Source: a virus
DNA: 64,000 bases
IMG/VR virus record: IMGVR_UViG_3300032246_001967
Coordinates: 1 to 64,000 of that record
Reading direction: 5' to 3' (one strand)
This document shows, piece after piece, positions 6,416 through 52,182 of the stretch; position 1 is the stretch's first letter, and each line of letters begins with the position of its first letter. Under the pieces are notes generated by a model that saw only the letters and a program-made list of their open reading frames with translations, did not search any database and was not told the DNA's origin. The position numbers and the translations under genes were made by a program.

Positions 6416-8262
6416 TGGCCAACATAACAAGAAATATTAATTATTTAAATAGGGATTTTCCAAATTTAAGAAATGCTCTTATTGAGTATTCTAAAACATA
6501 CTTCCCAACAACATATAATGATTTTAGTCCAGCATCACCAGGAATGATGTTTATGGAAATGGCTGCTTATGTTGGAGATATCATGTCATTTTATTTGGAT
6601 AATCAAATCCAAGAAACATTTATTCAATATGCTAGACAAGTAACTAATATTTATGATTTAGCTTATATGTTAGGTTATAAACCTAAAGCTACTAATGTAT
6701 CTGTTGTAAATGTAGATTTTTATCAACAAGTACCAGCTTCAGGTTCAGGTGTAAATAATGTTCCTGATTATTCTTATAGTTTAACTTATCCATCAAATAC
6801 TCAAATTTCAAATGGTAGTGTTAATTTTATAGTAGAAGAACCAATTAATTTTTCTTATAGTAGTTCTTTAGATCCTACCGAAGTTTCTATATATGAAATA
6901 TCAGGTGGAGAGCCTATTTTTTATCTATTAAAAAAGACTAGAAAAGCATACTCAGCTACTATTAATACAACTTCATTTTCTTTTGGTAATTATCAACCAT
7001 ATCCTACTGTTGAAATAAACACATCTAATTTTATAGGAATTTTAGATATTACAGATTCAGATGGAAATGTTTGGTATGAAGTAGATTATTTAGGACAAGA
7101 AATGGTTTTAAACTCAGTTAAAAATTCAAATCCTAATAATCCTAATTATTCTTCTAATGATAATACTCCTTATTTATTAAAACTTAAAAAAGTACAAAGA
7201 AGATTTGCTACTCGTTTATTAGATGCTACTACAGTTCAAATCCAATTTGGATCAGGTAACCCTAATGATACAGATGAAGAATTAGTACCTAATAACAATA
7301 ATGTAGGTATTGGTTTACCTTATGGTAAAGATAAGTTAACAACAGCTTATTCACCTACAAACTTTATGTTTACTAATACTTATGGAACCGCACCTGTTAA
7401 TACAACTTTAACTGTTAGATATTTAACTGGAGGTGGAGTAAATAGTAATGTAGGAGCTAATCAAATTTCTAGTATTATAACTTTACCATCATTTATTAAT
7501 AATAATTTAAATGCTACTACAGCTAATACTATTTTCTCTACAAGAACAATTAATAATGCTGAAGCAGCTTCAGGTGGAAAATCAGGAGATACTATTCAAG
7601 AAATTAGACAAAATACTTTAGCTAATTATCAATCCCAATTACGTAACGTAACTCAAGATGATTATTTAGTAAGAGCCTTAGCTATGCCTTCTAAATATGG
7701 AACTATAGCAAAAGCATATATTGAACCAACAAAACGTTCAAATTTAAATCCTGGTGAATTACCTAATAATTTAGATTTATATGTTTTAGGATTTAATAAT
7801 AATGGAAATTTAATTACTACATCTAATTTAGTAAAACAAAATTTAATTACTTATTTATCACAATATAGATTATTAAATGATTCCGTGAGAATAAAAGATG
7901 CTTTTATTGTTAATATAGGAATTAATTTTGATATTATTGTTTTACCTAATTATAATAATAATGATATTTTACTTCAATGTATTTCTACATTACAGAATTA
8001 TTTTAGTATAAACAACTGGTCAATAAATCAACCTATTATTTTAAGAGACTTATATATTTTATTAGATAGAATCCAAGGAGTTCAAACTGTTAAAAATATA
8101 GAGATTACAAATAAAGTAGGTGAAAGTTTAGGATATAGTAATAACTCTTATGATATTAAAGGAGCAACTATATCTAACATAATTTATCCTTCAATTGATC
8201 CTATGATTTTTGAAGTTAAATATCCGTTAACAGACATTCAAGGAAGAGTAGTACCTTTATAA
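6415..8262 (+). CDS. Baseplate wedge protein, gp6-like
   Basis: YLNRDF, DFSPASPGMMFMEMAAYVGD, LGYKP, GGKSGDTIQEIR, RNVTQDDY; follows gp25. Confidence 0.9.
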   Translation: MANITRNINYLNRDFPNLRNALIEYSKTYFPTTYNDFSPASPGMMFMEMAAYVGDIMSFYLDNQIQETFIQYARQVTNIYDLAYMLGYKPKATNVSVVNVDFYQQVPASGSGVNNVPDYSYSLTYPSNTQISNGSVNFIVEEPINFSYSSSLDPTEVSIYEISGGEPIFYLLKKTRKAYSATINTTSFSFGNYQPYPTVEINTSNFIGILDITDSDGNVWYEVDYLGQEMVLNSVKNSNPNNPNYSSNDNTPYLLKLKKVQRRFATRLLDATTVQIQFGSGNPNDTDEELVPNNNNVGIGLPYGKDKLTTAYSPTNFMFTNTYGTAPVNTTLTVRYLTGGGVNSNVGANQISSIITLPSFINNNLNATTANTIFSTRTINNAEAASGGKSGDTIQEIRQNTLANYQSQLRNVTQDDYLVRALAMPSKYGTIAKAYIEPTKRSNLNPGELPNNLDLYVLGFNNNGNLITTSNLVKQNLITYLSQYRLLNDSVRIKDAFIVNIGINFDIIVLPNYNNNDILLQCISTLQNYFSINNWSINQPIILRDLYILLDRIQGVQTVKNIEITNKVGESLGYSNNSYDIKGATISNIIYPSIDPMIFEVKYPLTDIQGRVVPL

Positions 8263-8263
8263 A

Positions 8264-9391
8264 ATGGCAGTATATAAAATTTTTCCAATAGCAGATACAA
8301 CCTTATATTCAGGATACCCTTCTATGAATACAGGGTTAGATGAAATAATAGAATCATCTACTAATTTTGAAACAGGTGTTCTTCAAACTCCTGGTTTATA
8401 CCCTCAAACATCAAGATATTTAGTTAAATTTGATCCTACAGAAATAAATGATATTATTAATAATAAAATATCTGGTTCTAATTGGCAATCAAATTTAAGA
8501 GTATTTATTGCTAAAGCTGAAGGTTTAAGTAATACTTCTTCTATAGCAATTAATGCTATAGCTGAAGATTGGGCAATGGGAACAGGTCATTTTTTAAGTT
8601 CACCAGAAATTAATAATGGTGCTTCTTGGATATGGAAAGATTATTCTGGAAGTGCTAAATGGACAACCTCAAGTTTTACTTCAGGCATTACAGGATCTTA
8701 TAATATAACTAATAATCCATCATCTCAAGGAGGTGGAGTTTGGTATACTAGTTCTCAACAATCACAAATTTTTAGTTTTTATTCTGATTTAGATTTAAAT
8801 TCAAATGTAACTTCTATTGTATCAAAATGGTATAGTGGTTCTTTTAATAATTATGGATTCATTGTTAGACAAACTGAGTCTCAAGAATTTATAAATAATA
8901 CTAATGCTCAAGTTACTTTAAAATATTTTTCAAGAGATACTCATACTATTTATCCTCCTCAATTAGAGTTTAAATGGAATGATTATACTTATTCAACAGG
9001 TAACCTTTCAGTTTTAAATACAACTCCAGTAACATTAGCTTTAGACCAAAATCCAGGTATATTTTATTCTAGTAGTGTTAATATTTTTAGAGTAAACGCT
9101 CGTCCTGAATACCCTGTAAAAGTATGGCAAACATCTTCAGTTTATACTCAAAATTATGCTTTACCTACTGCCTCATATTATGCAATAAAAGATTTAGATA
9201 CTGATGAGTATGTGATTGATTTTGATACTACTTATACTAAACTAAGTTGCGACTCTAATGGAAGTTATTTTACTTTGTATATGAATGGATTAGAACCAGA
9301 AAGATATTATAAAATTTTAATCCAATCAACAATTAATAACAACACAATAGTGTTTGATGAAAATTATATTTTTAAAGTAGTAAATGGCTAA
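8264..9391 (+). CDS. Virion structural protein
   Basis: Ser/Thr/Asn-rich beta protein in the baseplate operon. Confidence 0.55.
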   Translation: MAVYKIFPIADTTLYSGYPSMNTGLDEIIESSTNFETGVLQTPGLYPQTSRYLVKFDPTEINDIINNKISGSNWQSNLRVFIAKAEGLSNTSSIAINAIAEDWAMGTGHFLSSPEINNGASWIWKDYSGSAKWTTSSFTSGITGSYNITNNPSSQGGGVWYTSSQQSQIFSFYSDLDLNSNVTSIVSKWYSGSFNNYGFIVRQTESQEFINNTNAQVTLKYFSRDTHTIYPPQLEFKWNDYTYSTGNLSVLNTTPVTLALDQNPGIFYSSSVNIFRVNARPEYPVKVWQTSSVYTQNYALPTASYYAIKDLDTDEYVIDFDTTYTKLSCDSNGSYFTLYMNGLEPERYYKILIQSTINNNTIVFDENYIFKVVNG

Positions 9392-9738: not shown

Positions 9739-12700
9739 ATGGCAGAAAACTATACAATATCAGAAGTATTAGCCAACGAATTTGAACTACAAACTATCTC
9801 TTCTCAGGATAGTAATTTATTATCTGAAGTACCTGTTGAAGGACTATTTTCTCCTACTCTTAGCTCAGTTGAATTTTCATTATATGATTTTAATAAAAAT
9901 CTATTATATTTTGATTCTGATTTAAAAAGTTGGTCAACTAACTTTGATTCATTTGTTAATAATGAAAATAAAAAAATAACTTCTCTTAATATTGATCCTA
10001 GTAAAGATATAGAAACTTTAGGTTATAATTATGGAAAAGTTTATGGATTTTATAACTTTATTCAAAATGAATTAGGGTCTTCTATCAATAATCAATTTTT
10101 TATTAGTGAAATATCTTCTGATAGAACAGAAATTAGAATAGATAACACTAACATTTCTTCAGAAAGTTTAGAAATTTTATATAATATTTTTTATTCTAAA
10201 TTTAATTCTCCTGATACTTATGATTATTTCTATTTAAATTTTGGAGACAATCAGTTATTAATTGCTACTAACATTTATTTAGATAAAAGTTCATCTGATT
10301 ATAGTATTTTAATTAAATTATATGAACCTTTACTTCCTCAATTTGATGTAAAATCTCAATGTTATGTTAGTTCTAAAATAGCAGACCCTGTAGCTTATTT
10401 AGTTGAATTTACAATTGATTTAGGACAAATTGATAATATTGTTCAAATTCAAGGTCCAAATATTAATTTAAATTTAAATGGACAAGTAAATAATTCTACA
10501 ACTTATCAATCATTTGATACTTTAACTTCAACAGTTAATACAAGTTCTTTTAATCAATTAAGTAGTTTATTAGAAGAAAAAGGTGTTGAAATTAATATTG
10601 ATTATACTGATTATTCAAACTTTGTATTTTATTCATCTGCTGTTTCTAGATTAGAAAATTTCTATACTAAAGCTAAACAAATTGAAGATTACAATAATGA
10701 TATAAATATTTTAACTTCATTACCTACTACTGCTGGTTCAAGTGGAAGTATTTCATTATTAGAACAATATATTTCAAATATTATTACTAATTTTGATGGT
10801 TATGAATATTATTTATATTTTGAATCTGGTTCTAAAGCTTGGCCTAAAACAAATTCTACACCCCCTTATTTATTAGCATCAACTGGTTCTACTGATGTTT
10901 TAAATTGGTATGGAAGTAATATTTATGGTTCTCCTTATTTTGGAGGCCAATTAGAAACAGCATCTTTATATGATTCAAACAATCAAGACCTTTTAATCAA
11001 TACTATTCCAGATTATTTAAATGATTATGATAGTGATGATTATTTAACCTTTGTTAAAATGGTTGGTCAATCTTTTGATAATATTTGGGTTTATATTAAA
11101 AGTGTAGTTGATAAAACAAATACTGATAACCGTTTAGATTTTGGCGCTCCGTCAGGAATTATAGCTGATATTTTAAGAAGTTTAGGAGTTAAAATCTATT
11201 CTAATAATTTTTCAGTAGATAATACTTATGAATCTTTATTAGGTATAGGGGCTAACGGAATGTTATATCCAACTGGTAGTGAATTAATTAATACTATTAT
11301 CACTGCTTCAGCTATTCCTTATGCTTTAAGTGATGTTAATAATTTAACATATAAAAGATTATATCATAACTTACCTTATATTTTAAAGAAAAAAGGTACG
11401 CCTGAGGGTTTAAAAGCTATTTTAAATGCTTATGGTGTTCCTGATACTATTTTAAGAATTAATGAATTTGGAGGTAAAGATAAAAATTCAAACACTTGGG
11501 ACCAATGGCAGGATGAATATAATTATGCTTTTGTAACAACAGGTTCAAGTAAAATATCAATACCTTTTACAACATCATCAGTAAATTATGGAACTGTTTA
11601 TCCTAAAGCTGTAGAATTTAGATTTAAAACTTTTGGTTTACCAATTGATTCTATTCCTTATTCACAATCTCTTTTAATAGATAGTAATAATAGTTTTGGA
11701 GTAGTTCTAGAATATACAGGTTCAGGATATTCAAGTGGTTCATATAATGGATCAATTATAGATCCTAATTACCAATATGCTACTTTAAAATTTATTTCAG
11801 GTTCATTATCTTCAAGTGTTTATTTACCTTTTTATGATGGTGGTTGGTGGTCAGTATTAGTTAATGCTAATTCAGGTTCAACTACTACTTATACTTTATA
11901 TGCTAAAAATAAAGATTATGAAGGTGAAGATGGAAATACAATAGGTTTTCAAGCATCTTCTAGCTTTGTAGGAGATAAATTCTGGTTAACTTCAGGTCAA
12001 TTATTTTTTGGAACAAGTAGTGTTTTAAACACTAAAACATATTCTGCGTTTAGTGGTTCTTATCAAGAAATAAGATATTATAATGTACCTTTAAGTGAAA
12101 GTGCCTTTGATGCTTATGTAATGAACCCTTATTCAATTGAAGGCAATACAATAAGTGGCTCTCAATCTTCTAAAAATAGTTTATTCTTTAGATTACCTTT
12201 AGGAGGTGAATTATATACAGGTTCAACTTCTGTTCATCCTGGTATAACTGGATCTTTTATAACACAATCATTTACAGGAACTTCATCAACAGGTTCATAT
12301 AGTGGAAGTTACTTTTGGAGTAAAAATAGAGAAGTAATATATTTTGATCAACCTGCTGTAGGTATTCAAAATATTGTTTCTGATAAAATTAAAACAATTA
12401 ATACTTCTTTACCTTATAGTGGTAGTAATGATCCAAATATTCCTAATAATAATATTTTATCTTCTCATACTTCAATTCAACAAAGTTTTGCTATAAGTTC
12501 TTCTTATACAAATGATATTAGTTATACTGAAGTAGCTTTTTCACCTCAAAATGAAATAAATGAGGATATAATGTCAACTTTAGGTTATTTTAACATTGGA
12601 GAATTAATTGGTGATCCAAGACAAATAAGTACTTCTGATGAATCTTATCCTGAATTAGATATTTTAAGAGATTTATATTTTGAAAAATATTCTTCAAATT

Positions 12701-17066: not shown

Positions 17067-17543
17067 ATGAATGAATGGTTTTCACAAACAGATAGTGACA
17101 GCGGGTTATTAACTAAAAAAACATATTCCTCAATTGAGGATTTCCCAGAAAATACCTTTGGTTTTATTTATATTGTAAAACATAGACCATCAGGTATGTC
17201 TTATATTGGAAAAAAAGTTCTTTACTATAACGTAAAGAAAAAACTAACAAAAAAGGAAATAGCAGAACAAACAGGACCAGGCAGGAAGTCATCCATAAAA
17301 ATGGTAGTAAAAGAATCAGACTGGAAAACTTATTATGGATCTGCTAAACCAATTTTAGAACTCATTAAGGATGGTAAACAAGAGGAATTTACCCGTGAGA
17401 TATTACAATTGGTTCCTAATAAAAAACTTCTTACTTACTATGAATGTAAGTATTTATTTACATATAATGTATTGGAACAACCTGAAGGTTATTTTAATGA
17501 TAACATTTTAGGCAAGTTCTTTTCAAAAGATTTTTTACTTTAA
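17067..17543 (+). CDS. GIY-YIG endonuclease (stand-alone catalytic domain)
   Basis: GFIYIV...SYIGKK, YYGS, FTREIL, E and YFNDNI motifs. Confidence 0.75.
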   Translation: MNEWFSQTDSDSGLLTKKTYSSIEDFPENTFGFIYIVKHRPSGMSYIGKKVLYYNVKKKLTKKEIAEQTGPGRKSSIKMVVKESDWKTYYGSAKPILELIKDGKQEEFTREILQLVPNKKLLTYYECKYLFTYNVLEQPEGYFNDNILGKFFSKDFLL

Positions 17544-32719: not shown

Positions 32720-33346
32720 ATGGCTTATGTTTATCTTATAACTAATAAAATAAATGGAAGAAAATATGTTGGTTCTTCTAGAAAATCTCAAATAGATCCT
32801 AATTATTATGGTAGTGGTAAAGCAATAAAAGATGCTTTAAAAAAATACGGAAAAGAAAATTTTCAAAGAGATATACTATGGGAAGGTGAGGGAAATGCTC
32901 GTGATATGGAAACTTACTTTTTAGAGAAAAAAGATGCTGCTAATAATCCTTTATATTATAATATGACTAATGATGCTAGGGGGAATAATCTTCATAAAGA
33001 AGAAACTAAAAAAACAGTTAGTGAAAAATTAAAAGGTAGTAAACTTTCTAAAGAAACTTGTGAGAAAATCTCAAAAGCAAAAATAGGATCAACAACTTCT
33101 AAAAAAGGTAAATCTGATGGTCCTAAACCTAAAGTATCTGAAGCACATAAAGGTAGAATAAGTCCTAATAAAGGAAAAAGTAAACAAGTAGCTTTATATA
33201 AGACATCAGGTGAATATATTAAAACATACTCTAATTACAATGAATTAGCAATAGATTTAAACATCAATCCAGAAACCGTAAGATGTCAATTAGTAGGTAA
33301 AGCTAAAACTATATGTAACAAACAATATAAAGCACAATATGTATAA
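32720..33346 (+). CDS. GIY-YIG homing endonuclease (Seg-like)
   Basis: YVYLITNKINGRKYVGS, YYGSG, KKYGKENF, YYN, NUMOD3-like repeats. Confidence 0.85.
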   Translation: MAYVYLITNKINGRKYVGSSRKSQIDPNYYGSGKAIKDALKKYGKENFQRDILWEGEGNARDMETYFLEKKDAANNPLYYNMTNDARGNNLHKEETKKTVSEKLKGSKLSKETCEKISKAKIGSTTSKKGKSDGPKPKVSEAHKGRISPNKGKSKQVALYKTSGEYIKTYSNYNELAIDLNINPETVRCQLVGKAKTICNKQYKAQYV

Positions 33347-45246: not shown

Positions 45247-45392
45247 GCGTTTTTGAAATATTTTGATATACGTATACCCGACAATATACGATTTTCTATA
45301 TCGTATTAAGATTTAAAATATCTATTACGCTTCGAGTAATCTATAATAAGCGTACTTCCAACAAAAATTATTTGAGGACAAAAAACAAACAA

Positions 45393-46466
45393 ATGGCAAA
45401 CAGAGACTTATTAAAAGAAGCCATTGCCGATGCTAAAGCTGTTAAGGAAACAGCCATCGCCAATGCAAAAGCTGCTCTTGAAGAAGCTTTTACTCCCATG
45501 CTTCGTGAAAAATTAGCTGCTAAAATAGCTGAAATGGATGAAATGGAAGAAGAAGTTGATTTAAAAGAAGCAGACGAAATGGAAGAAGGTCTTGAAGAAA
45601 CTTACGACAAAACTGATGAAGCTAAAGACATGGATAACATGGAAGAAGCTGAAAAAGTAGATGAAGTAGATCTTGAAGAACTTCTAAGAGAATTAGATGA
45701 ATTAGAAGAAGGTGAAGCGACAGGTGAAGAAGGATTTGGTAAATTTTCTTCAGACGGAACCGAAGGTTTCGATGGTGGAGACGGAGACACACAAGAAAAA
45801 GCATTAGATGAAGCTGAAGGTGAAGAAGATTATGAAGATAAAGATGCAGATGGTGTTGAAGATTCAGAAGATGAAGAAATTGACATCGAAAACATGGACG
45901 AAGATGATCTTAAAAAATTCATTGAAAGTGTAATCGCTGACATGGTTGAATCTGGCGAATTAGAAGCTGGCCATGAAGGTGAAGAAGGTGAAGAGGGAGA
46001 AGAAGGTGAAGAAGATGAAGAAGGTGAAGAAGAAATGAGTATGGATATGATGGCTGAGGTTAAGAAAGCTAAAAAAGATGCTGAAGAATCTAAAAAAGCT
46101 AAAGAAAAAGCTGAAAAAGAGCTTAAAGAAGCTTATGATGCTTTAGAAGCAATTAAAACTGAACTTAACGAAGTTAACTTATTCAACGCTAAATTACTTT
46201 ACACTAACAAAATCTTCAAAGCTAAGAATTTGAACGAATCACAAAAAGTAAAAGTATTAGCTGCTTTTGATAAAGCGGCTAGTGTAAAAGAAGCTAAATT
46301 AGTATTTGAAACTCTATCAGCTGGTTTCAATGAAAAGAAAGCTCCTATGAATGAATCATTAATCCGTGGTGGTGCTTCAAAAGCTGCAGGTGTAGCTACT
46401 AAAAAGCCAATTATGGAAGCTAATGATCAGGTTGCAAGATGGCAAAAATTAGCTGGTATCAAATAA
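45393..46466 (+). CDS. Prohead scaffold protein (gp22-like); likely start ATG 45393
   Basis: Very acidic coiled coil between the protease and MCP; ends RWQKLAGIK. Confidence 0.85.
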   Translation: MANRDLLKEAIADAKAVKETAIANAKAALEEAFTPMLREKLAAKIAEMDEMEEEVDLKEADEMEEGLEETYDKTDEAKDMDNMEEAEKVDEVDLEELLRELDELEEGEATGEEGFGKFSSDGTEGFDGGDGDTQEKALDEAEGEEDYEDKDADGVEDSEDEEIDIENMDEDDLKKFIESVIADMVESGELEAGHEGEEGEEGEEGEEDEEGEEEMSMDMMAEVKKAKKDAEESKKAKEKAEKELKEAYDALEAIKTELNEVNLFNAKLLYTNKIFKAKNLNESQKVKVLAAFDKAASVKEAKLVFETLSAGFNEKKAPMNESLIRGGASKAAGVATKKPIMEANDQVARWQKLAGIK

Positions 46467-46494: not shown

Positions 46495-48174
46495 ATGTCA
46501 CAAGTACAACAACTTTTAGAAAGCGCAGCAGGTTCTTGGAAGAGCATGCAAAGCGACGCAGCCAAATTATCCGGCAAATGGATTAAAACTGGCTTATTAG
46601 AAGGTTTAGGTGAGATTGATAAGAATAACATGTCAATCTTATTAGAAAACCAAGCAAAACAGTTAGTAATGGAATTTAACCAAATCTCTACTAACTCTTA
46701 CTTTACTAGCGGTACTCAAGGTGAAAACTGGGCTGGTATTGCTTTACCATTGGTTCGTAAGGTATTCGGAACTATCGTAGCGAAAGAGTTCGTTTCAGTT
46801 CAACCTATGAACATGCCTTCAGGTCTAGTGTTCTTCTTAGATTTCCAATATGGTAACACTAAGAACCCATTTGCAACTGGTGATTCTTTATATGGTCAAA
46901 GAAACGCTTCTGGTCAGTTCCCATTTGCTACTACTGCCCCTTCAGGTGCTTTATATGGCGCTGGTAAGTTTACTTACTCAACTAACCAAACTTCATCTAC
47001 AGTAGTAACAACTTCAGGTTCTAACATTAGCTCAGCTTCTTTTGCTGATGTTAACTTTGATTCTAATTTCTCAGCTTCTGTAGCTGCTGGTAACATCAAG
47101 AAAATTGCTATCTCTAGTTCAAGAGCTACTAACTTAGTTTCTATGGATTTAGATGCGGTTCGTGGTTTCATCATTACTTCAGGTTCAGTTACTGTTGGTG
47201 CTAACTTACCTCAGTTCTTTACTTATGATTACACTAACGATACTGTAAACTTCTTCGTTTCTGCTTCTACTGCTCAAATCGGTGGTGCTTCTGGTGTTAA
47301 CACTTACACAGTGTTCTACAACAAGTTAACTACTGACCAGTACAGAGGTGACTTTGAAGAATCAAGTTCATACTCAACTCCTAACTCTTTAAGTACTTCA
47401 ACTATCATTATCCCTGAGATCAATGTTAAAATGCAGTCACAAGCTATCACAGCTAAGACTAAGAAGTTAAAAGCTGTTTGGACTCCTGAGTTTGCACAAG
47501 ACTTAGCTGCTTACCAAAACATCGATGCTGAAGCTGAATTAACTAACATCATGAGTGAGTACATTTCAATGGAAATTGATCTTGAAATCTTAGATATGTT
47601 AATTGAAGATGCTGCTGCTGGTACTGAATATTGGTCAGTTGTTAACAACACTGTAATTACTGGTTCTGGTGCTGGAGCTGTTCCTACAACTTTAGCTTCT
47701 GGTTACTACAATACTCAAGGTCAATGGTTCCAAACTTTAGGAACTAAGATCCAAAAGTTAAGTAACAGAATCCACCAGTTAACTTTAAGAGGTGGTGCAA
47801 ACTTCATCGTAACTTCTCCTACAGTTGCTACTGTTCTTGAATCTATCCCAGGATTTGCTTCTACTTCAAACGGTGAAGCTGAACAAATGGAATATGCATT
47901 CGGTGTACAGAAAGTTGGTAGCGTAAACGGTCGTTACAAGGTTTATAAAAACCCTTACTTAACTGAAAACTTAATCTTAATGGGTTACAAAGGATCTCAA
48001 TTCCTTGAGACTGGTGCTGTATTTGCTCCTTATATCCCAATGATTATGACTCCATTAGTGTACGATCCTGATACCTTCACTCCACGTAAAGGTTTATTAA
48101 CTCGTTACGCTAAGAAGATGTTACGTCCTGAATTCTATGCTAAGATCTATGTTAATGGTTTAAACACCATCTAA
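46495..48174 (+). CDS. Major capsid protein (gp23-like)
   Basis: LLENQ, LPLVRKVF, VSVQPM..PSGLVF, KLKAVWTPEFAQDL, APYIP, TPRKGLLTRY. Confidence 0.97.
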   Translation: MSQVQQLLESAAGSWKSMQSDAAKLSGKWIKTGLLEGLGEIDKNNMSILLENQAKQLVMEFNQISTNSYFTSGTQGENWAGIALPLVRKVFGTIVAKEFVSVQPMNMPSGLVFFLDFQYGNTKNPFATGDSLYGQRNASGQFPFATTAPSGALYGAGKFTYSTNQTSSTVVTTSGSNISSASFADVNFDSNFSASVAAGNIKKIAISSSRATNLVSMDLDAVRGFIITSGSVTVGANLPQFFTYDYTNDTVNFFVSASTAQIGGASGVNTYTVFYNKLTTDQYRGDFEESSSYSTPNSLSTSTIIIPEINVKMQSQAITAKTKKLKAVWTPEFAQDLAAYQNIDAEAELTNIMSEYISMEIDLEILDMLIEDAAAGTEYWSVVNNTVITGSGAGAVPTTLASGYYNTQGQWFQTLGTKIQKLSNRIHQLTLRGGANFIVTSPTVATVLESIPGFASTSNGEAEQMEYAFGVQKVGSVNGRYKVYKNPYLTENLILMGYKGSQFLETGAVFAPYIPMIMTPLVYDPDTFTPRKGLLTRYAKKMLRPEFYAKIYVNGLNTI

Positions 48175-48206: not shown

Positions 48207-48238
48207 AGAGCCTAGAGATTTCTAGGCTCTCTTTATTT
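48207..48238 (+). terminator. Terminator after MCP
   Basis: AGAGCCTAGA-gatt-TCTAGGCTCT plus CTTTATTT. Confidence 0.75.
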
Positions 48239-48288
48239 CTAGGTACTTACTATATATTTATACTCAACATAGTTATAAAATAAATTTT

Positions 48289-49203
48289 ATGAAAGAAACA
48301 CCAAGTCAGTTACCTATTCAAAGTTATGTGATGAATTTCCCGTTCACCTTATCAACAGAAGATCCAAATAACATTTGGATGCAAGAACTAACTGATGATG
48401 AGTTAAGAGTTAACAAACCAAAAGCTTATAAACAATTTATGGATTTATATCAGTTTATGGCTGGTGGATCTTTAGTTTATTTATTACCTGCTGAAGGCAA
48501 TTTTCAAGATCAAGTTTATGTAGCTAACTTAGGTATTCATTTACCTCATATTAAAAATGAAAATCATATTGTTTTATCTAACTTTACTTCTGATCCTCGT
48601 AAAGGTGAAGAATTAGTAGGTGAAAAATTTTTTAACCAAATGGGTTATAAAACAGCTATTTCTCCTTACAAATGGGAAGGTGAAGCTGATTTAAAATACC
48701 TTTATGGTAACAAATATATTGGTGGTTATGGTATTCGTTCCAATATTAAAACATATGAATGGATGGAAGAACAATACAATATGGATATTATTAAGGTTGC
48801 CATGACCGATGAATATCTTTATCATTTAGATTGTTCTATATTCGCGTTAAACACAGAACAAACATTGATTTGCACCGAGTTATTTGACTCTGAAGAACTC
48901 GCGTTAATAGAAAGAGAAACAGAAATTATTGATATTGATGTTGAAGATGCTTTAGGTGGATTAACTAACTCTGTTAGATATGGTAACATGATTTTATGTG
49001 CTTCTAATATTTCTGAGTTAAAAAAATCTCATGAATATTATGAAGGTGAAAAACATAAAATTGAAACATTAGAAAAAATTTGTTCTAATGCTGGTATGGA
49101 ACCTGTTATCTTCAATTTATCAGAATATATGAAATCAGGTGCTATGCTTTCTTGTATGGTAATGCATTTAAATAGAGTTGATCATAATAGAATTTTACTA
49201 TAA
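48289..49203 (+). CDS. Amidinotransferase/arginine-deiminase (pentein) family enzyme
   Basis: DQVYVAN, RKGE, WEGEAD, YHLDC, KSGAMLSC (catalytic D/E/H/C arrangement). Confidence 0.85.
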   Translation: MKETPSQLPIQSYVMNFPFTLSTEDPNNIWMQELTDDELRVNKPKAYKQFMDLYQFMAGGSLVYLLPAEGNFQDQVYVANLGIHLPHIKNENHIVLSNFTSDPRKGEELVGEKFFNQMGYKTAISPYKWEGEADLKYLYGNKYIGGYGIRSNIKTYEWMEEQYNMDIIKVAMTDEYLYHLDCSIFALNTEQTLICTELFDSEELALIERETEIIDIDVEDALGGLTNSVRYGNMILCASNISELKKSHEYYEGEKHKIETLEKICSNAGMEPVIFNLSEYMKSGAMLSCMVMHLNRVDHNRILL

Positions 49204-49922
49204 TGGCACAAACATTACAAGAATGGTTAAATACTGAAGTTAAGCAACTTCAAAAAATGCCTGTTGGTGATTTATCTAATACTTTCTTTTTTAGAGATCC
49301 TATTAGACCTAATTTTATAGACCATGAACATTTTTATAGTCCAGCTGATGGAACTATTTTATATCAGAAATTCATTAAAGATCCTACTGAACCTATAGTT
49401 GAGATTAAAGGATTAAATTACACACTACAAGATGTCGTAGGCGATGATGAATACAATACCCCTTCATTAGTTATCGGTATATTCATGTCGTTCTACGATG
49501 TTCATATAAATCGCATACCTTACGGAGGTATTTTAAAATATAAACCACTAGACGCTATACAGTCAACTAATAAACCAATGTTAGCTGTAGAAAAGGATAT
49601 CTTAAATAAAAAGATTAATCCTGCTAATATGGAGTATTTAAAATATAATGAAAGAATGTGGAATCAAATTTACTCACCTTCTTTAGATTACAAATATTAT
49701 CTTATTCAGATTGCTGATGAGGATGTAAACGTAATTGCTCCTTTTACAAATTCACAGAATGATATATTTGCTCAAAATGAAAGATTTTCTTTAATTAGAT
49801 GGGGTTCTCAAGTTGATTTAGTATTACCGTTAGATGAAAGATTTGATTTTGAACTTTGTCTTGATGATGCAATGCATGTGCAAGCAGGAATAGATAAGAT
49901 TATTAAAATAATAAATAAATAA
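49203..49922 (+). CDS. psd: Phosphatidylserine decarboxylase-like pyruvoyl proenzyme
   Basis: FFFRDP, SPADG, IFMSFYDVHINRIP, IRWGSQVDL (G-S autocleavage site). Confidence 0.8.
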   Translation: MAQTLQEWLNTEVKQLQKMPVGDLSNTFFFRDPIRPNFIDHEHFYSPADGTILYQKFIKDPTEPIVEIKGLNYTLQDVVGDDEYNTPSLVIGIFMSFYDVHINRIPYGGILKYKPLDAIQSTNKPMLAVEKDILNKKINPANMEYLKYNERMWNQIYSPSLDYKYYLIQIADEDVNVIAPFTNSQNDIFAQNERFSLIRWGSQVDLVLPLDERFDFELCLDDAMHVQAGIDKIIKIINK

Positions 49923-49923
49923 T

Positions 49924-50613
49924 ATGGCATCAAACCATTACGAGGATGAAGTATTTAAAAATAAAAGAATACCTAAAAATCCAATTAAATTCGGAATTAC
50001 TCTGAATGAAGAACAAAAAAAAGCTAAAGAAGATATTTTAAACAATGACATTGTAGCTTTAAAAGGTAAAGCAGGATCTGGTAAAACAGCAACTGCCTTA
50101 CAAGTAGCTTTAGATCAATTGTTTAAAAGAGAAATAGAAAAAATTATAATTGCTCGTCCTTATGTAACTGCTGGTGAAGATATTGGACATTTACCAGGAG
50201 GAGTTGATGATAAATTAGCTTATTTAACTGCTCCTATATATAATATAATGCATGAGTTAGTAGGTAAAGAAAAATCAGAAAAATTAGTTAATGAAGGACA
50301 AGTTTTAGTAGCTCCTTTTGGATTTTTAAGAGGTAATACATTTTCTAACTGTTATGTTTTGATTGATGAAGCACAAAACGCTTCTATGAAACAAACAGAA
50401 TTAATGATTGGTCGTTTAGGTAGAAACTCTAAAATGATTTTTTGTGGAGACATGTCTCAATGTGATTTAAAAAATAAAAAAGACTCGGGTTTTGATTTCT
50501 TTTTAAAACTAGAAATTGAAGTACCTAAAGTTAAAGTAATTACATTAGAAAAAAACCACAGACATGAAATAGTAGAACCTGTGTTAAAAGTGTTTGCTGC
50601 TTATAGAGATTAA
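49924..50613 (+). CDS. phoH: PhoH-family ATPase
   Basis: GKAGSGKT, IARP, GHLPG, FLRGNTF, IDEAQN, GDMSQCD, HRH. Confidence 0.93.
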   Translation: MASNHYEDEVFKNKRIPKNPIKFGITLNEEQKKAKEDILNNDIVALKGKAGSGKTATALQVALDQLFKREIEKIIIARPYVTAGEDIGHLPGGVDDKLAYLTAPIYNIMHELVGKEKSEKLVNEGQVLVAPFGFLRGNTFSNCYVLIDEAQNASMKQTELMIGRLGRNSKMIFCGDMSQCDLKNKKDSGFDFFLKLEIEVPKVKVITLEKNHRHEIVEPVLKVFAAYRD

Positions 50614-50650
50614 TATTTTCCCCTGTATCTTTAATATTTATAAATAAACT

Positions 50651-51025
50651 ATGGCTGCAGGTAAATATAATATAGTAATAGAACAAGGAGCAACGTACGA
50701 CATTACAATTGCTTATAAAGATTCTAACAACAATCCTATTGACTTAACAGGATTTGGAGGAAGAATGCAAATTAGACCTTCTATAGGATCTACAACCACT
50801 TATCTATGTCTATCTAGTAGTTTACAAGCTGATGGAACAGGTTTAGAGTTTTTATCACCTACTACATCAGGATCTATAAAACTTTATATTTCTGCTATTA
50901 GTTCTTCAATGTTAAATTTTGATCAAGCTGTTTATGATTTAGAAATTGCTTCTGGTTCTTATGTAAGTAGAATACTACAGGGTGGTGTAAAATTATCTAA
51001 AGAAGTAACAACCGGTATTTGCTAA
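50651..51025 (+). CDS. Ig-like virion/fibre adaptor protein
   Basis: IEQGAT...IDLTG...MQIR...YDLEI...ILQG. Confidence 0.6.
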   Translation: MAAGKYNIVIEQGATYDITIAYKDSNNNPIDLTGFGGRMQIRPSIGSTTTYLCLSSSLQADGTGLEFLSPTTSGSIKLYISAISSSMLNFDQAVYDLEIASGSYVSRILQGGVKLSKEVTTGIC

Positions 51026-52182
51026 TGAGTGATAAAATTTACATATCATCACAAGATAACCAAGTTAATTTATCTCAAAACAATAATATAGTAGTAATTA
51101 CCGACAGTGATCAAAACCAAATTACCGTCACTCAACCAGTTACTGCTGTTCTTGAAATAAATACACCAGGCCCCCCAGGCCCTCCAGGTCCACAAGGCCC
51201 TCCGGGTACTGGAAGTTTTGATACAGGATCTTTTGCAACTACAGGATCAAATAATTTTATAGGCACTCAAACAATTAACGGGAATTTAACTATCACCGGA
51301 TCAACAGCAGGAACTTATGGTACTATCAGTAGAATAAATTTTGTTTCTGGAGCTGCTATTGTAGTAGACGGGCCTAACATGGATTTAGTTGCTGGTCCAG
51401 AAGGATGGTCTGAATTAGCTTCTAACAACGGTGAAAATTATGTTTGGGTTGATAATGAAGGAGTAAAATTAGTAACTGGCTGGAATACATCAGCCCACCA
51501 GTGGTTAATAAATCTATCAGGATCTCTAAATGCTGCTGGAGATTTAAATATGAACGGTAATTATATTACCGGATCAATTAGTGGGTCACTTACCGGTTCT
51601 TTACTAGGTACTTCATCATATTCTAATCAATCATTAAGTTCAAGTTATGCTTTAACTGCATCCTATTTAGATAATTATATTGCTCCCTTTCCTTACACAG
51701 GTTCGGCTATAATTACCGGTAGTTTAGTAGTCACAGGTAGTATAAGATCTACTAATGGATTTACCGGCTCTTTACAAGGTACTTCTTCATTTGCAATAAC
51801 TGCTTCTACTTCTATTACTGAATCAAGAACAATTACTTTTAATTTAGGAAGTATCCCAACCCCAATAACAACTGGAAGTAAAACTAATAATATATTCTAC
51901 TCACCATACTCAGGGTCTATAAAAGGATTTATTTTAACATCAAATACAAGTTCAACAACAACCTTAGATATTTGGAAAAGAAATAATACTTTACCTACAT
52001 CTTCAGATACTATTATAACAACAAATAAACCTCAGTTAATAAACAACCAATTTACTAGTTCATATAATGTATCAGGATGGACAACTTTATTTAATCCAAA
52101 TGATGTATTTTTAATAAATGTTGAAACAAATACAAGTGCTTCAAATTTAACTTTACAATTAATAACAGAAATCTATAAATAA
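51025..52182 (+). CDS. Fibre protein with short collagen-like segment (likely start ATG 51025)
   Basis: GPPGPPGPQGPPG; TGSN.F.G.Q.I.G and FTGSL.GTSS repeats. Confidence 0.65.
   Translation: MSDKIYISSQDNQVNLSQNNNIVVITDSDQNQITVTQPVTAVLEINTPGPPGPPGPQGPPGTGSFDTGSFATTGSNNFIGTQTINGNLTITGSTAGTYGTISRINFVSGAAIVVDGPNMDLVAGPEGWSELASNNGENYVWVDNEGVKLVTGWNTSAHQWLINLSGSLNAAGDLNMNGNYITGSISGSLTGSLLGTSSYSNQSLSSSYALTASYLDNYIAPFPYTGSAIITGSLVVTGSIRSTNGFTGSLQGTSSFAITASTSITESRTITFNLGSIPTPITTGSKTNNIFYSPYSGSIKGFILTSNTSSTTTLDIWKRNNTLPTSSDTIITTNKPQLINNQFTSSYNVSGWTTLFNPNDVFLINVETNTSASNLTLQLITEIYK

Follow-up and report, generated by a model that had tools for sequence, protein, structure and literature searches.

A conserved pair of ArgZ-like pentein and PSD-fold pyruvoyl proenzyme genes in phages and bacteria, a candidate module for making putrescine from arginine

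We analysed a window of 64,000 nucleotides (nt), positions 1 to 64,000 of the IMG/VR virus record IMGVR_UViG_3300032246_001967, and focus here on two genes that lie directly behind the major capsid gene. Gene 1 (48289..49203, + strand) encodes an ArgZ-like pentein of 304 amino acids (aa), a predicted L-arginine dihydrolase. Gene 2 (49203..49922, + strand) encodes a 239-aa pyruvoyl proenzyme with the fold of phosphatidylserine decarboxylase (PSD), which we call PSD-like and predict to be a basic-amino-acid decarboxylase. The two genes are coupled by TAATG at 49201-49205, in which the pentein stop TAA overlaps the PSD-like start ATG, and they are inherited together across phages and bacteria. 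On sequence grounds the pair may form a compact pathway from L-arginine through ornithine to putrescine, expressed late in infection, a plausible reading that we advance tentatively. In a first step, the pentein would hydrolyse the guanidino group of free L-arginine twice by way of a Cys289 thiouronium intermediate, giving L-ornithine, two NH3 and CO2; in a second step, the PSD-fold protein would cleave itself between Gly201 and Ser202 to make an N-terminal pyruvoyl group, and the resulting enzyme would decarboxylate ornithine to putrescine. It is from fold, conserved residues, gene coupling, co-inheritance and gene neighbours that we infer these substrates, products and order of steps.

The pairing is nearly invariant in viral genomes. 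The 224 IMG/VR loci recovered reduce to 115 distinct pentein DNA sequences, 108 of them with at least 750 nt downstream, and the PSD-like gene starts no more than 300 nt after the pentein in 107 of these 108 distinct viral loci and is missing from none. In the sole exception, L197, the two genes are separated by 1,054 nt (L197:5578-6632), a gap that may reflect insertion of a mobile gene. Both genes are under strong purifying selection and are more conserved than the capsid protein in most loci (the pentein in 83 of 87, the PSD-like protein in 80 of 87). When single distant homologues served as queries, no distant viral loci were returned; smaller alignments recovered such loci. These genes are also highly abundant in aquatic metagenomes, where a word-indexed search gave 2,071 proteins at E <= 0.001 and a separate search of cluster representatives gave 953.

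Cultured phages carry the same genes. Among 50,697 records, the pentein matched 46 with an identity of at least 37% (40 Campylobacter and 6 Bacteroides phages) and the PSD-like protein matched 45 (39 and 6, respectively); three Campylobacter records gave a partial pentein match (48-89% of the query), two of them broken into two or four pieces. The genes are adjacent in Bacteroides phage SJC03, in the same order as in the window, and their matches also lie side by side in DAC16 and DAC23, whereas in Campylobacter Fletchervirus both genes co-occur ~42 kb apart. A match in Xanthomonas phage phiXF1 (21.7% identity, annotated as dimethylarginine dimethylaminohydrolase, DDAH) is a different pentein and was excluded from the co-occurrence count. 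The PSD-like gene of Campylobacter phage NCTC12673 (gp085, L307:5001-5768) lies directly 3' of a GroES gene, and a note in that record likens gp085 to 'AF210249_12' and to a Saccharopolyspora protein. We take AF210249 to be the Streptomyces verticillus bleomycin cluster, whose B2 congener presumably ends in agmatine, an unverified lead; literature on bleomycin together with PSD offered nothing useful.

Bacterial chromosomes hold the pair as well, in a different order. A scan of GTDB species genomes gave 179 pentein relatives, and the best 80 of these 179 loci were kept. A PSD-like match was present in 68 of the 80, sharing 42-54% identity with the phage protein. In 67 of these 68, all bacterial, the PSD-like gene immediately precedes the pentein gene in the same orientation; the remaining locus, L258, is a phage contig placed by binning in a Flavobacteriales metagenome-assembled genome (MAG). 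Carriers come from at least eight phyla, namely Actinomycetota, Verrucomicrobiota, Acidobacteriota, Pseudomonadota, Campylobacterota, Planctomycetota, Gemmatimonadota and Ca. Eiseniibacteriota. Twelve of the 80 loci have no PSD-like match: three end just upstream of the pentein and six are cyanobacterial. An earlier note, made from the sequence alone, had proposed a check of gene-neighbourhood conservation, and adjacency in 107 of 108 viral loci and 67 bacterial ones supports the pair as a co-conserved module. Patristic distances of the pentein and PSD-like trees correlate at r = 0.93 over all 2,850 pairs and at 0.86 among bacteria, to which shared ancestry alone contributes. A branch of the pentein tree with a Shimodaira-Hasegawa-like approximate likelihood-ratio (SH-aLRT) value of 96 has all three phage lineages on the same side, but the Campylobacter and Bacteroides phage rows form long branches; the PSD-like tree does not resolve the three phage lineages, so we make no claim of a single capture or of several.

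The loci in which the partner has been exchanged carry the strongest argument about chemistry. In five of the six cyanobacterial loci, a pyridoxal phosphate (PLP)-dependent decarboxylase adjoins the pentein in place of the PSD-like gene. Its nearest solved relatives are lysine/ornithine decarboxylases (E 5e-36), the PBCV-1 arginine decarboxylase (3e-35) and eukaryotic ornithine decarboxylase (4e-30), with diaminopimelate decarboxylases well behind these lysine, ornithine and arginine types. In a third arrangement, the pentein homologue P0190 (440 aa) has an N-terminal domain with the fold of S-adenosylmethionine decarboxylase (AdoMetDC; PF02675, 34 bits for a cut-off of 25) joined to the pentein, and a second such fusion, P0271, stands on a 65-kb contig and is 78% identical to P0190 in that region; the pentein part of P0271 is 40% identical to the window pentein. 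No AdoMetDC-pentein fusion occurred in the viral contig collection searched. That a pentein is joined to decarboxylases of three unrelated folds (PSD, PLP and AdoMetDC) is the strongest argument for guanidino hydrolysis coupled to decarboxylation of a basic amino acid: the partner is always a decarboxylase while its fold changes, which supports a hydrolysis-plus-decarboxylation module. P0190 and P0271 are also the only members among 98 with Phe at the R150 position and Ala or Ser at the N28 position, and this fused variant may, from its sequence, have moved to a substrate without a carboxylate.

Recruitment of a pyruvoyl enzyme to this kind of task has precedent. Homologues of AdoMetDC/SpeD became pyruvoyl ornithine or arginine decarboxylases in phages, bacteria and archaea, according to the accessible text of PMC9992855 and PMC10407285. 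These SpeD-derived enzymes (Li et al. 2023; same two sources, same portions) likewise represent a recruited pyruvoyl enzyme and a phage polyamine gene, but they have the SpeD fold, whereas gene 2 has the PSD fold. The accessible portions of both papers mention no pentein partner; within them, the terms Campylobacter, Bacteroides, dihydrolase and amidinotransferase do not occur in PMC9992855, nor do amidino and dimethylarginine in PMC10407285.

Gene 1 falls in phrog_12759 (function unassigned; E 5.8e-65) and matches no Pfam family at E 0.01, hence no Pfam amidinotransferase. Its AlphaFold model has a predicted local distance difference test (pLDDT) score of 96.7, and the best Foldseek match of that model is ArgZ/AgrE (E 1e-21; TM-scores 0.80/0.88), followed by DDAH at ~3e-13 and the amidinotransferases SxtG, HsvA and AGAT at 1e-10 to 1e-12. 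All of the first 50 Foldseek rows are penteins except T. brucei RESC5. The modelled fold and the presence of His179 and Cys289 both place gene 1 in the pentein superfamily. Sequence searches gave the same nearest relatives: a plain search of the PDB returned only AgrE (Alr4995) and ArgZ (Sll1336), at E 5e-14, and a 57-sequence profile of the pentein family matched AgrE at E 7.4e-45 over its full length and DDAH at 1e-9. As judged from sequence and modelled fold, gene 1 is therefore not an amidinotransferase of the AGAT/StrB1 type; its nearest relatives are ArgZ and AgrE.

The catalytic and substrate-binding positions agree with this assignment. D74, N80, R104, E130, R150, H179, D181 and C289 align with AgrE D65, N71, R90, E118, R139, H168, D170 and C264, and all eight are retained in 96-98 of 98 pentein family members (H179, C289, N80, D74 and E130 in 98/98, R104 in 97/98, R150 in 96/98). 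The 98-member census spans phages, bacteria and the cyanobacteria with their different partner, so that retention is independent of the decarboxylase alongside. We assign residue roles from the alignment and from PDB titles. The counterparts of D74, R104 and R150 in DDAH and ArgZ presumably bind the alpha-amino and alpha-carboxylate groups, and by analogy the retained Arg/Arg/Asp set points to a free amino acid as substrate. The PDB titles of ArgZ/AgrE entries name C264S and C264A substrate complexes and an N71S-trapped intermediate, which identifies C264 as the nucleophile.

Compared with its namesakes, gene 1 has the fold of the N-terminal pentein domain of ArgZ (Synechocystis Sll1336) and AgrE (Anabaena Alr4995; PDB 6JUY-6JV1, 6LRF-6LRH) at an identity of only 22-23%. 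It stands alone at 304 aa without the large C-terminal part of those ~700-aa chains, a protein type entered in NCBIfam as bifunctional arginine dihydrolase/ornithine cyclodeaminase, and has an extra segment of ~20 residues near 240-265; in addition, its family is always partnered by a decarboxylase and is found in phages and non-cyanobacterial phyla. Some gene 1 homologues match Pfam DDAH_eukar and are named DDAH by JGI. Gene 1 differs from DDAH in having Asn at position 80, where DDAH presumably has Asp, and methylarginines would not be expected as a substrate in phages or bacteria. Four pentein homologues of 590-942 aa (P0185, P0264, P0257 and P0213) are interrupted by LAGLIDADG domains, one of them with an intein splicing domain as well, and look like intein-bearing copies; another, P0139 (440 aa), has a C-terminal 'InPase' inorganic-pyrophosphatase domain (PF18823, E 1e-26).

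Gene 2 (phrog_12670) matches PF02666 at E 6.2e-24, with 85 bits against a gathering cut-off of 22. Its only Gly-Ser site, G201-S202, is unchanged in all 23 relatives aligned (mean column identity 63%), as are D49 and H101, and these last two residues align with the PADG and DYH motifs in E. coli PSD. With this score, the Asp-His-Ser triad and the Gly-Ser site, the sequence is that of a PF02666 proenzyme, and cleavage between G201 and S202 is predicted to leave a 201-aa beta chain and a 38-aa alpha chain. No hydrophobic segment is present (top 19-residue Kyte-Doolittle mean 0.95), in keeping with the lack of an obvious N-terminal membrane anchor noted earlier. However, E. coli PSD has no transmembrane helix either and binds the membrane through amphipathic helices. 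Against NCBIfam, the PSD-like protein stays under the cut-offs of all 13 matching PSD/archaetidylserine decarboxylase models (best, 74 bits versus 183). Five of five bacterial carrier genomes examined encode a separate canonical PSD (152-213 bits), whereas their cassette copy scores 86-99 bits, like the phage protein. From its sequence, gene 2 is thus best described as a probably soluble PSD-fold pyruvoyl proenzyme and not as a housekeeping lipid PSD.

Solved relatives of gene 2 include enzymes that act on amino acids. Foldseek ranked E. coli PSD best, then PsiD (tryptophan) and Ao-ADC1 (arginine; PDB 9JER/9JF5), and the ESM Atlas gave only automatically named 'PSD family' clusters. Ao-ADC1 of Aspergillus oryzae is a demonstrated PSD-fold arginine decarboxylase in the accessible text of PMC12904898, and a PSD fold can therefore decarboxylate a free basic amino acid. 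Ao-ADC1 and Psilocybe PsiD have in common with gene 2 the PF02666 fold and self-cleaving Gly-Ser pyruvoyl chemistry, and theirs acts on a soluble amino acid (PMC12904898, same portion). The distance is nevertheless large: the plain PDB sequence search returned neither enzyme, the Foldseek E-values are ~0.02-0.03, Ao-ADC1 has 483 aa against 239 for the PSD-like protein, which is of bacterial or phage origin, and the cleavage motif is (W/Y/F)-G-S-Q in the PSD-like family and G-G-S-T in the Ao-ADC1/PsiD comparison. E. coli Psd (PDB 6L06/7CNW) is the top match among solved structures in both sequence and structure, with triad counterparts at D49, H101 and S202, but gene 2 has a pentein and exporters as gene neighbours and not lipid genes.

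To describe the surroundings of the bacterial cassette, open reading frames (ORFs) of the bacterial loci were clustered and representatives scanned. A MATE exporter adjoins the cassette in 42 loci, an ABC exporter of the cyclic-peptide export type in 17, a PotD-like polyamine-binding protein beside a hybrid sensor kinase in 12 (Verrucomicrobiota) and an AguA-like agmatine deiminase in 7. These neighbours fit a small cation or polyamine as product, and, with an exporter beside the cassette, the bacterial product would probably be secreted. A recurrent Verrucomicrobiota block (L263, L265-L267, L275, L278, L283, L292 and others) comprises an M90 peptidase, the PSD-like gene, the pentein, a MATE gene on the opposite strand, the PotD-like gene and the hybrid sensor kinase, and looks like a circuit for making, exporting and sensing an amine. 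Genes for non-ribosomal peptide synthetases (NRPS) or stand-alone condensation domains occur in some actinomycete and cyanobacterial loci, where the cassette amine may feed secondary metabolism.

In the phage, the pair sits in what we read from sequence as a late-type transcription unit. A late-type promoter-like motif, TATATATTTATAC, lies at 48253..48265 (+ strand), its core TATTTATA at 48255-48262 and 27 nt before the pentein start codon. The core has 27 coding-strand copies in the window, 19 of them no more than 45 nt upstream of + strand ORF starts, mostly of structural genes; as a yardstick for this placement, intergenic DNA totals just 1,913 of 64,000 nt. Counted on both strands, the octamer has 36 matches; shuffled sequences give 23.3 +/- 4.5, and none of 100 attains the observed number. 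We take TATAAATA to be the T4 late box consensus; on the coding strand, TATTTATA is its reverse complement, and we therefore treat it as a lineage-specific late-type motif. Upstream of the motif, a terminator-like hairpin with a 10-pair stem, including five G-C pairs, and a T-rich tail after it (48207..48230, + strand) probably ends the capsid transcript and sets the capsid gene apart from the unit that follows. Terminator-like sites between 48000 and 50800 number 2 versus 0.8 +/- 1.0 in shuffles, both being the two strands of this same hairpin.

Behind the pair, after a spacing of one base, comes a gene for a 229-aa PhoH-like ATPase (49924..50613, + strand; PF02562, E 2.8e-56, profile positions 6-204 of 205), and the next copy of the motif (50635..50642, + strand) opens the following unit, whose gene at 50651-51025 matches phrog_1084. 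Because of the motif at 48253, the hairpin, the TAATG overlap, the 1-base spacing and the next motif at 50635, we infer that the pentein, PSD-like and PhoH genes make up one transcription unit. The three ORFs, their TAATG overlap, His179/Cys289, the G201-S202 site, the upstream capsid gene and the late-type motif at 48253 had all been read correctly in the earlier note. Its operon of three holds as a transcription unit but not as a module: median identity to relatives in the viral loci is 49% for PhoH, against 80% for the pentein, 78% for the PSD-like protein and 69% for the capsid protein. No match to the window PhoH was found in the SJC03 locus, where all genes are annotated as hypothetical protein, and no PhoH in the annotated regions around the pentein or the PSD-like gene of NCTC12673. 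PhoH is a transcriptional neighbour only, outside the conserved pair.

Polyamines neutralise packaged DNA and support translation. In the phage, the proposed pathway would provide a diamine as counter-ion during the packaging of DNA into heads and might also free arginine nitrogen. Late expression beside head genes would suit a DNA-condensing function; the phage might instead gain from depleting arginine or releasing ammonia, alternatives that this evidence does not separate from condensation. A polyamine-like cation was among the products suggested at the outset, and of the options offered it is the best supported. The accompanying formula, 'guanidino transfer or hydrolysis plus decarboxylation', survives as a two-step amino-acid pathway with hydrolysis, while transfer is disfavoured by ArgZ/AgrE as nearest relatives.

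Several observations weigh against a route from arginine via ornithine to putrescine. The pentein reaches only 76.7 bits against the NCBIfam equivalog NF052232 (Arg_dihydro), with a cut-off of 450, and 74.5 against NF052231, with a cut-off of 1025; we therefore call it ArgZ-like and not an ArgZ orthologue. Its score against the M. tuberculosis-type DDAH model, 74.5 bits for a cut-off of 300, is close to the Arg_dihydro score. The model of the PSD-like protein has an overall pLDDT of 75.6 and falls under 50 at residues 120-148 and 173-182, both conserved stretches. Beyond the pair, no further polyamine gene was seen in the 128-kb phage record, and the phage pathway would therefore end at the diamine. 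With exporters and, in some loci, NRPS or condensation-domain genes nearby, the product could also be a secondary metabolite destined for secretion. Ornithine being a common metabolite, its decarboxylation would not be expected to depend on an obligate arginine dihydrolase. Among the five carrier genomes, three have AguA and a second PF02784 match, one a 629-aa frame, which we read as a canonical SpeA-type/AguA route, so that the cassette is not simply housekeeping. The other two, G006 (Ca. Glomeribacter, 1.7 Mb) and G004 (a Verrucomicrobiales MAG, 4.0 Mb), speak for the route instead: no AguA, no AdoMetDC and no OKR_DC above cut-off were found in them, in a search that did not extend to agmatinase or PvlArgDC and on incomplete MAGs, and each has one PF02784 match, presumably LysA. 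This survey of polyamine genes is weak evidence either way.

The main rival, less probable but to be taken seriously, reverses the steps: a PSD-fold arginine decarboxylase would make agmatine, and the pentein, as an 'agmatine dihydrolase' doing the work of AguA and AguB together, would convert it to putrescine, two NH3 and CO2, so that both orders give the same net conversion of arginine to putrescine. A PSD-fold arginine decarboxylase is proven in Ao-ADC1 (accessible text of PMC12904898; PDB 9JF5), and an arginine decarboxylase requires a downstream agmatine enzyme, an argument taken from the accessible part of PMC10407285 that would explain the obligate coupling. The decarboxylase gene comes first in the 67 bacterial loci and forms the N-terminal domain in both fusions, and strict coupling, gene order and decarboxylase-first fusions together fit the reverse order about as well as they fit the ornithine route. 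The AguA-like genes beside the cassette in seven loci hint at agmatine, and the AdoMetDC-fused penteins, in which Phe replaces R150 and either Ala or Ser replaces N28, may lack carboxylate binding. What speaks for free arginine as first substrate is the pentein itself: R104, R150 and D74 persist in 96-98 of the 98 members, and, given the presumed roles of these residues, two cationic side chains near the amine of agmatine would be unexpected. The closest characterised relatives, ArgZ and AgrE, moreover act on free L-arginine according to PDB titles. A second possibility, an improbable one, keeps the amidinotransferase name given to the first enzyme at the outset and has the pentein and decarboxylase produce a guanidino-amine such as a diguanidine or homoagmatine-type cation; its use, with equally little likelihood, would be export by bacteria as a signal, antibiotic or building block, and in phages DNA counter-ion supply or host manipulation. 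Amidinotransferases do have the pentein fold and the Cys-His triad, SxtG, HsvA and AGAT match the model at E 1e-10 to 1e-12, 'amidinotransferase family protein' is the database name on the Campylobacter phage genes, exporters including the cyclic-peptide type adjoin the cassette, and NRPS or condensation-domain genes lie near some actinomycete and cyanobacterial loci. The name is nonetheless not sustained, as Pfam gives no amidinotransferase match, ArgZ/AgrE at E 1e-21 stands far ahead of the best transferase at 1e-12, and no exporter or acceptor-making gene was seen in the phages. All 98 of 98 members have Asn at the position of ArgZ Asn71, whose N71S change traps an intermediate (PDB title); the residue at this position in DDAH and enzymes of the AGAT type is presumably Asp.

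Two further explanations appear very unlikely. Were gene 2 a true PSD that remodels host lipids, with the pentein acting independently, its Pfam PSD match above the gathering score, its intact autocleavage triad and E. coli PSD as best structural match would follow naturally, and the missing anchor would not be decisive, E. coli PSD itself presumably having no transmembrane helix. Lipid remodelling, which the earlier note had also entertained, is hard to reconcile with scores far under all 13 NCBIfam models, with an extra low-scoring paralogue next to a canonical PSD in five of five carrier genomes, with the lack of any hydrophobic stretch, or with obligate linkage to a pentein whose partner is elsewhere swapped for PLP or AdoMetDC-fold amino-acid decarboxylases. 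It is just as hard to credit that the pair modifies phage DNA, for example towards an amidine- or carboxyl-bearing 7-deazaguanine. The same record does encode QueC, a PTPS/QueD homologue, a radical-SAM protein read as QueE and GTP cyclohydrolase I (FolE) (record ~88,554-94,323; L310:5254-6141, 7361-7834, 7834-8625 and 10256-11023); penteins hydrolyse C=N groups, and a 7-carboxy-7-deazaguanine decarboxylase is still unproven in the accessible text of PMC10516641. The genome of Flavobacterium phage immuto is fully 7-deazaguanine-modified (PMC10516641, same portion), and the DNA of the present phage probably carries such a base too, like that relative. Yet immuto, the closest cultured relative by capsid, matches neither gene; 7-amido-7-deazaguanine is credited to Campylobacter phage CP220 (PMC10516641, accessible text) and not to the Fletchervirus carriers, and CP220 gave no match; and the bacterial cassette adjoins exporters, not DNA enzymes. 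With immuto modified without the pair and CP220 devoid of homologues of it, we rejected the 7-deazaguanine link. Virion modification, an earlier suggestion, drew nothing in its favour.

Returning to arginine as the starting substrate, a wider reading is possible, and we put it forward with a little more reserve than the pathway itself: the cassette could be an undescribed, widespread route to putrescine, linked to exporters in at least eight phyla, perhaps serving as a secreted amine or signal in Verrucomicrobiota, and captured by phages for late DNA counter-ion supply. The capturing phages would be three unrelated lineages, aquatic Flavobacteria-type T4-like phages, Bacteroides phages and Campylobacter Fletchervirus, a statement to be taken with the same reserve. 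If correct, arginine would reach putrescine by a new route of two enzymes, the PSD fold would gain a new enzyme activity and a third amino-acid substrate class, after arginine (Ao-ADC1) and tryptophan (PsiD), and an ArgZ-type dihydrolase would for the first time have a role beyond the ornithine-ammonia cycle of cyanobacteria. Current database names would then need correcting, namely 'phosphatidylserine decarboxylase' and 'amidinotransferase' for the phage genes and 'N-dimethylarginine dimethylaminohydrolase' for JGI metagenome proteins. Phage-encoded polyamine enzymes were only recently shown to be functional (accessible text of PMC9992855), and the presence of the genes in cultured Bacteroides and Campylobacter phages makes the prediction directly testable. 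A literature search with thin coverage of subscription journals, and without the supplements of PMC10516641, PMC9992855 and PMC10407285, which may list these genes, found no paper describing the pair or the proposed route. To that extent the pair is, as had been remarked, not known as a described phage module, but its genes do sit in Campylobacter (Fletchervirus) and Bacteroides phages and in many bacterial phyla.

The source of the window is a divergent, uncultured, aquatic T4-like myovirus. Its IMG/VR record totals 128 kb, with a CheckV completeness estimate of 78%, a G+C content of ~26-36% and almost all called genes on one strand, and it encodes a T4-type toolkit of gp23-type capsid, T4-type portal, prohead protease, large terminase, sheath and gp25. 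The gp23-type major capsid protein (46495..48174, + strand; PF07068, E 6.8e-75), given here as context, has Flavobacterium phage vB_FspM_immuto as its best cultured relative (53.5% identity), and the pentein/PSD-like module starts 115 nt behind its gene. Between the prohead protease and capsid genes, the position of a scaffold protein, a very acidic, Glu/Asp-rich protein of 364 aa is encoded at 45372-46466. Further downstream, the 387-aa product of 51019-52182 has no Pfam match; in it, a brief collagen-like run, PGPPGPPGPQGPPG, precedes long repeats rich in Gly, Ser and Thr, a composition that suggests a fibre protein. Homing-endonuclease genes of the SegE/GIY-YIG type lie at 17067-17543 and 32720-33346 in the window and at ~104,142-104,873 and ~125,846-126,562 in the record. 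Elsewhere in the record, GroES and GroEL homologues are encoded at ~98,954-100,853 (L310:15654-17553; Cpn10 E 1.3e-19, Cpn60 E 4.8e-67), and a sugar-nucleotide/glycosylation cluster at ~105,100-116,500 (L311:2021-13437) contains two glycosyltransferases, a DegT-type aminotransferase, a thiamine pyrophosphate (TPP) enzyme, an epimerase and a HAD-nucleotidyltransferase fusion.

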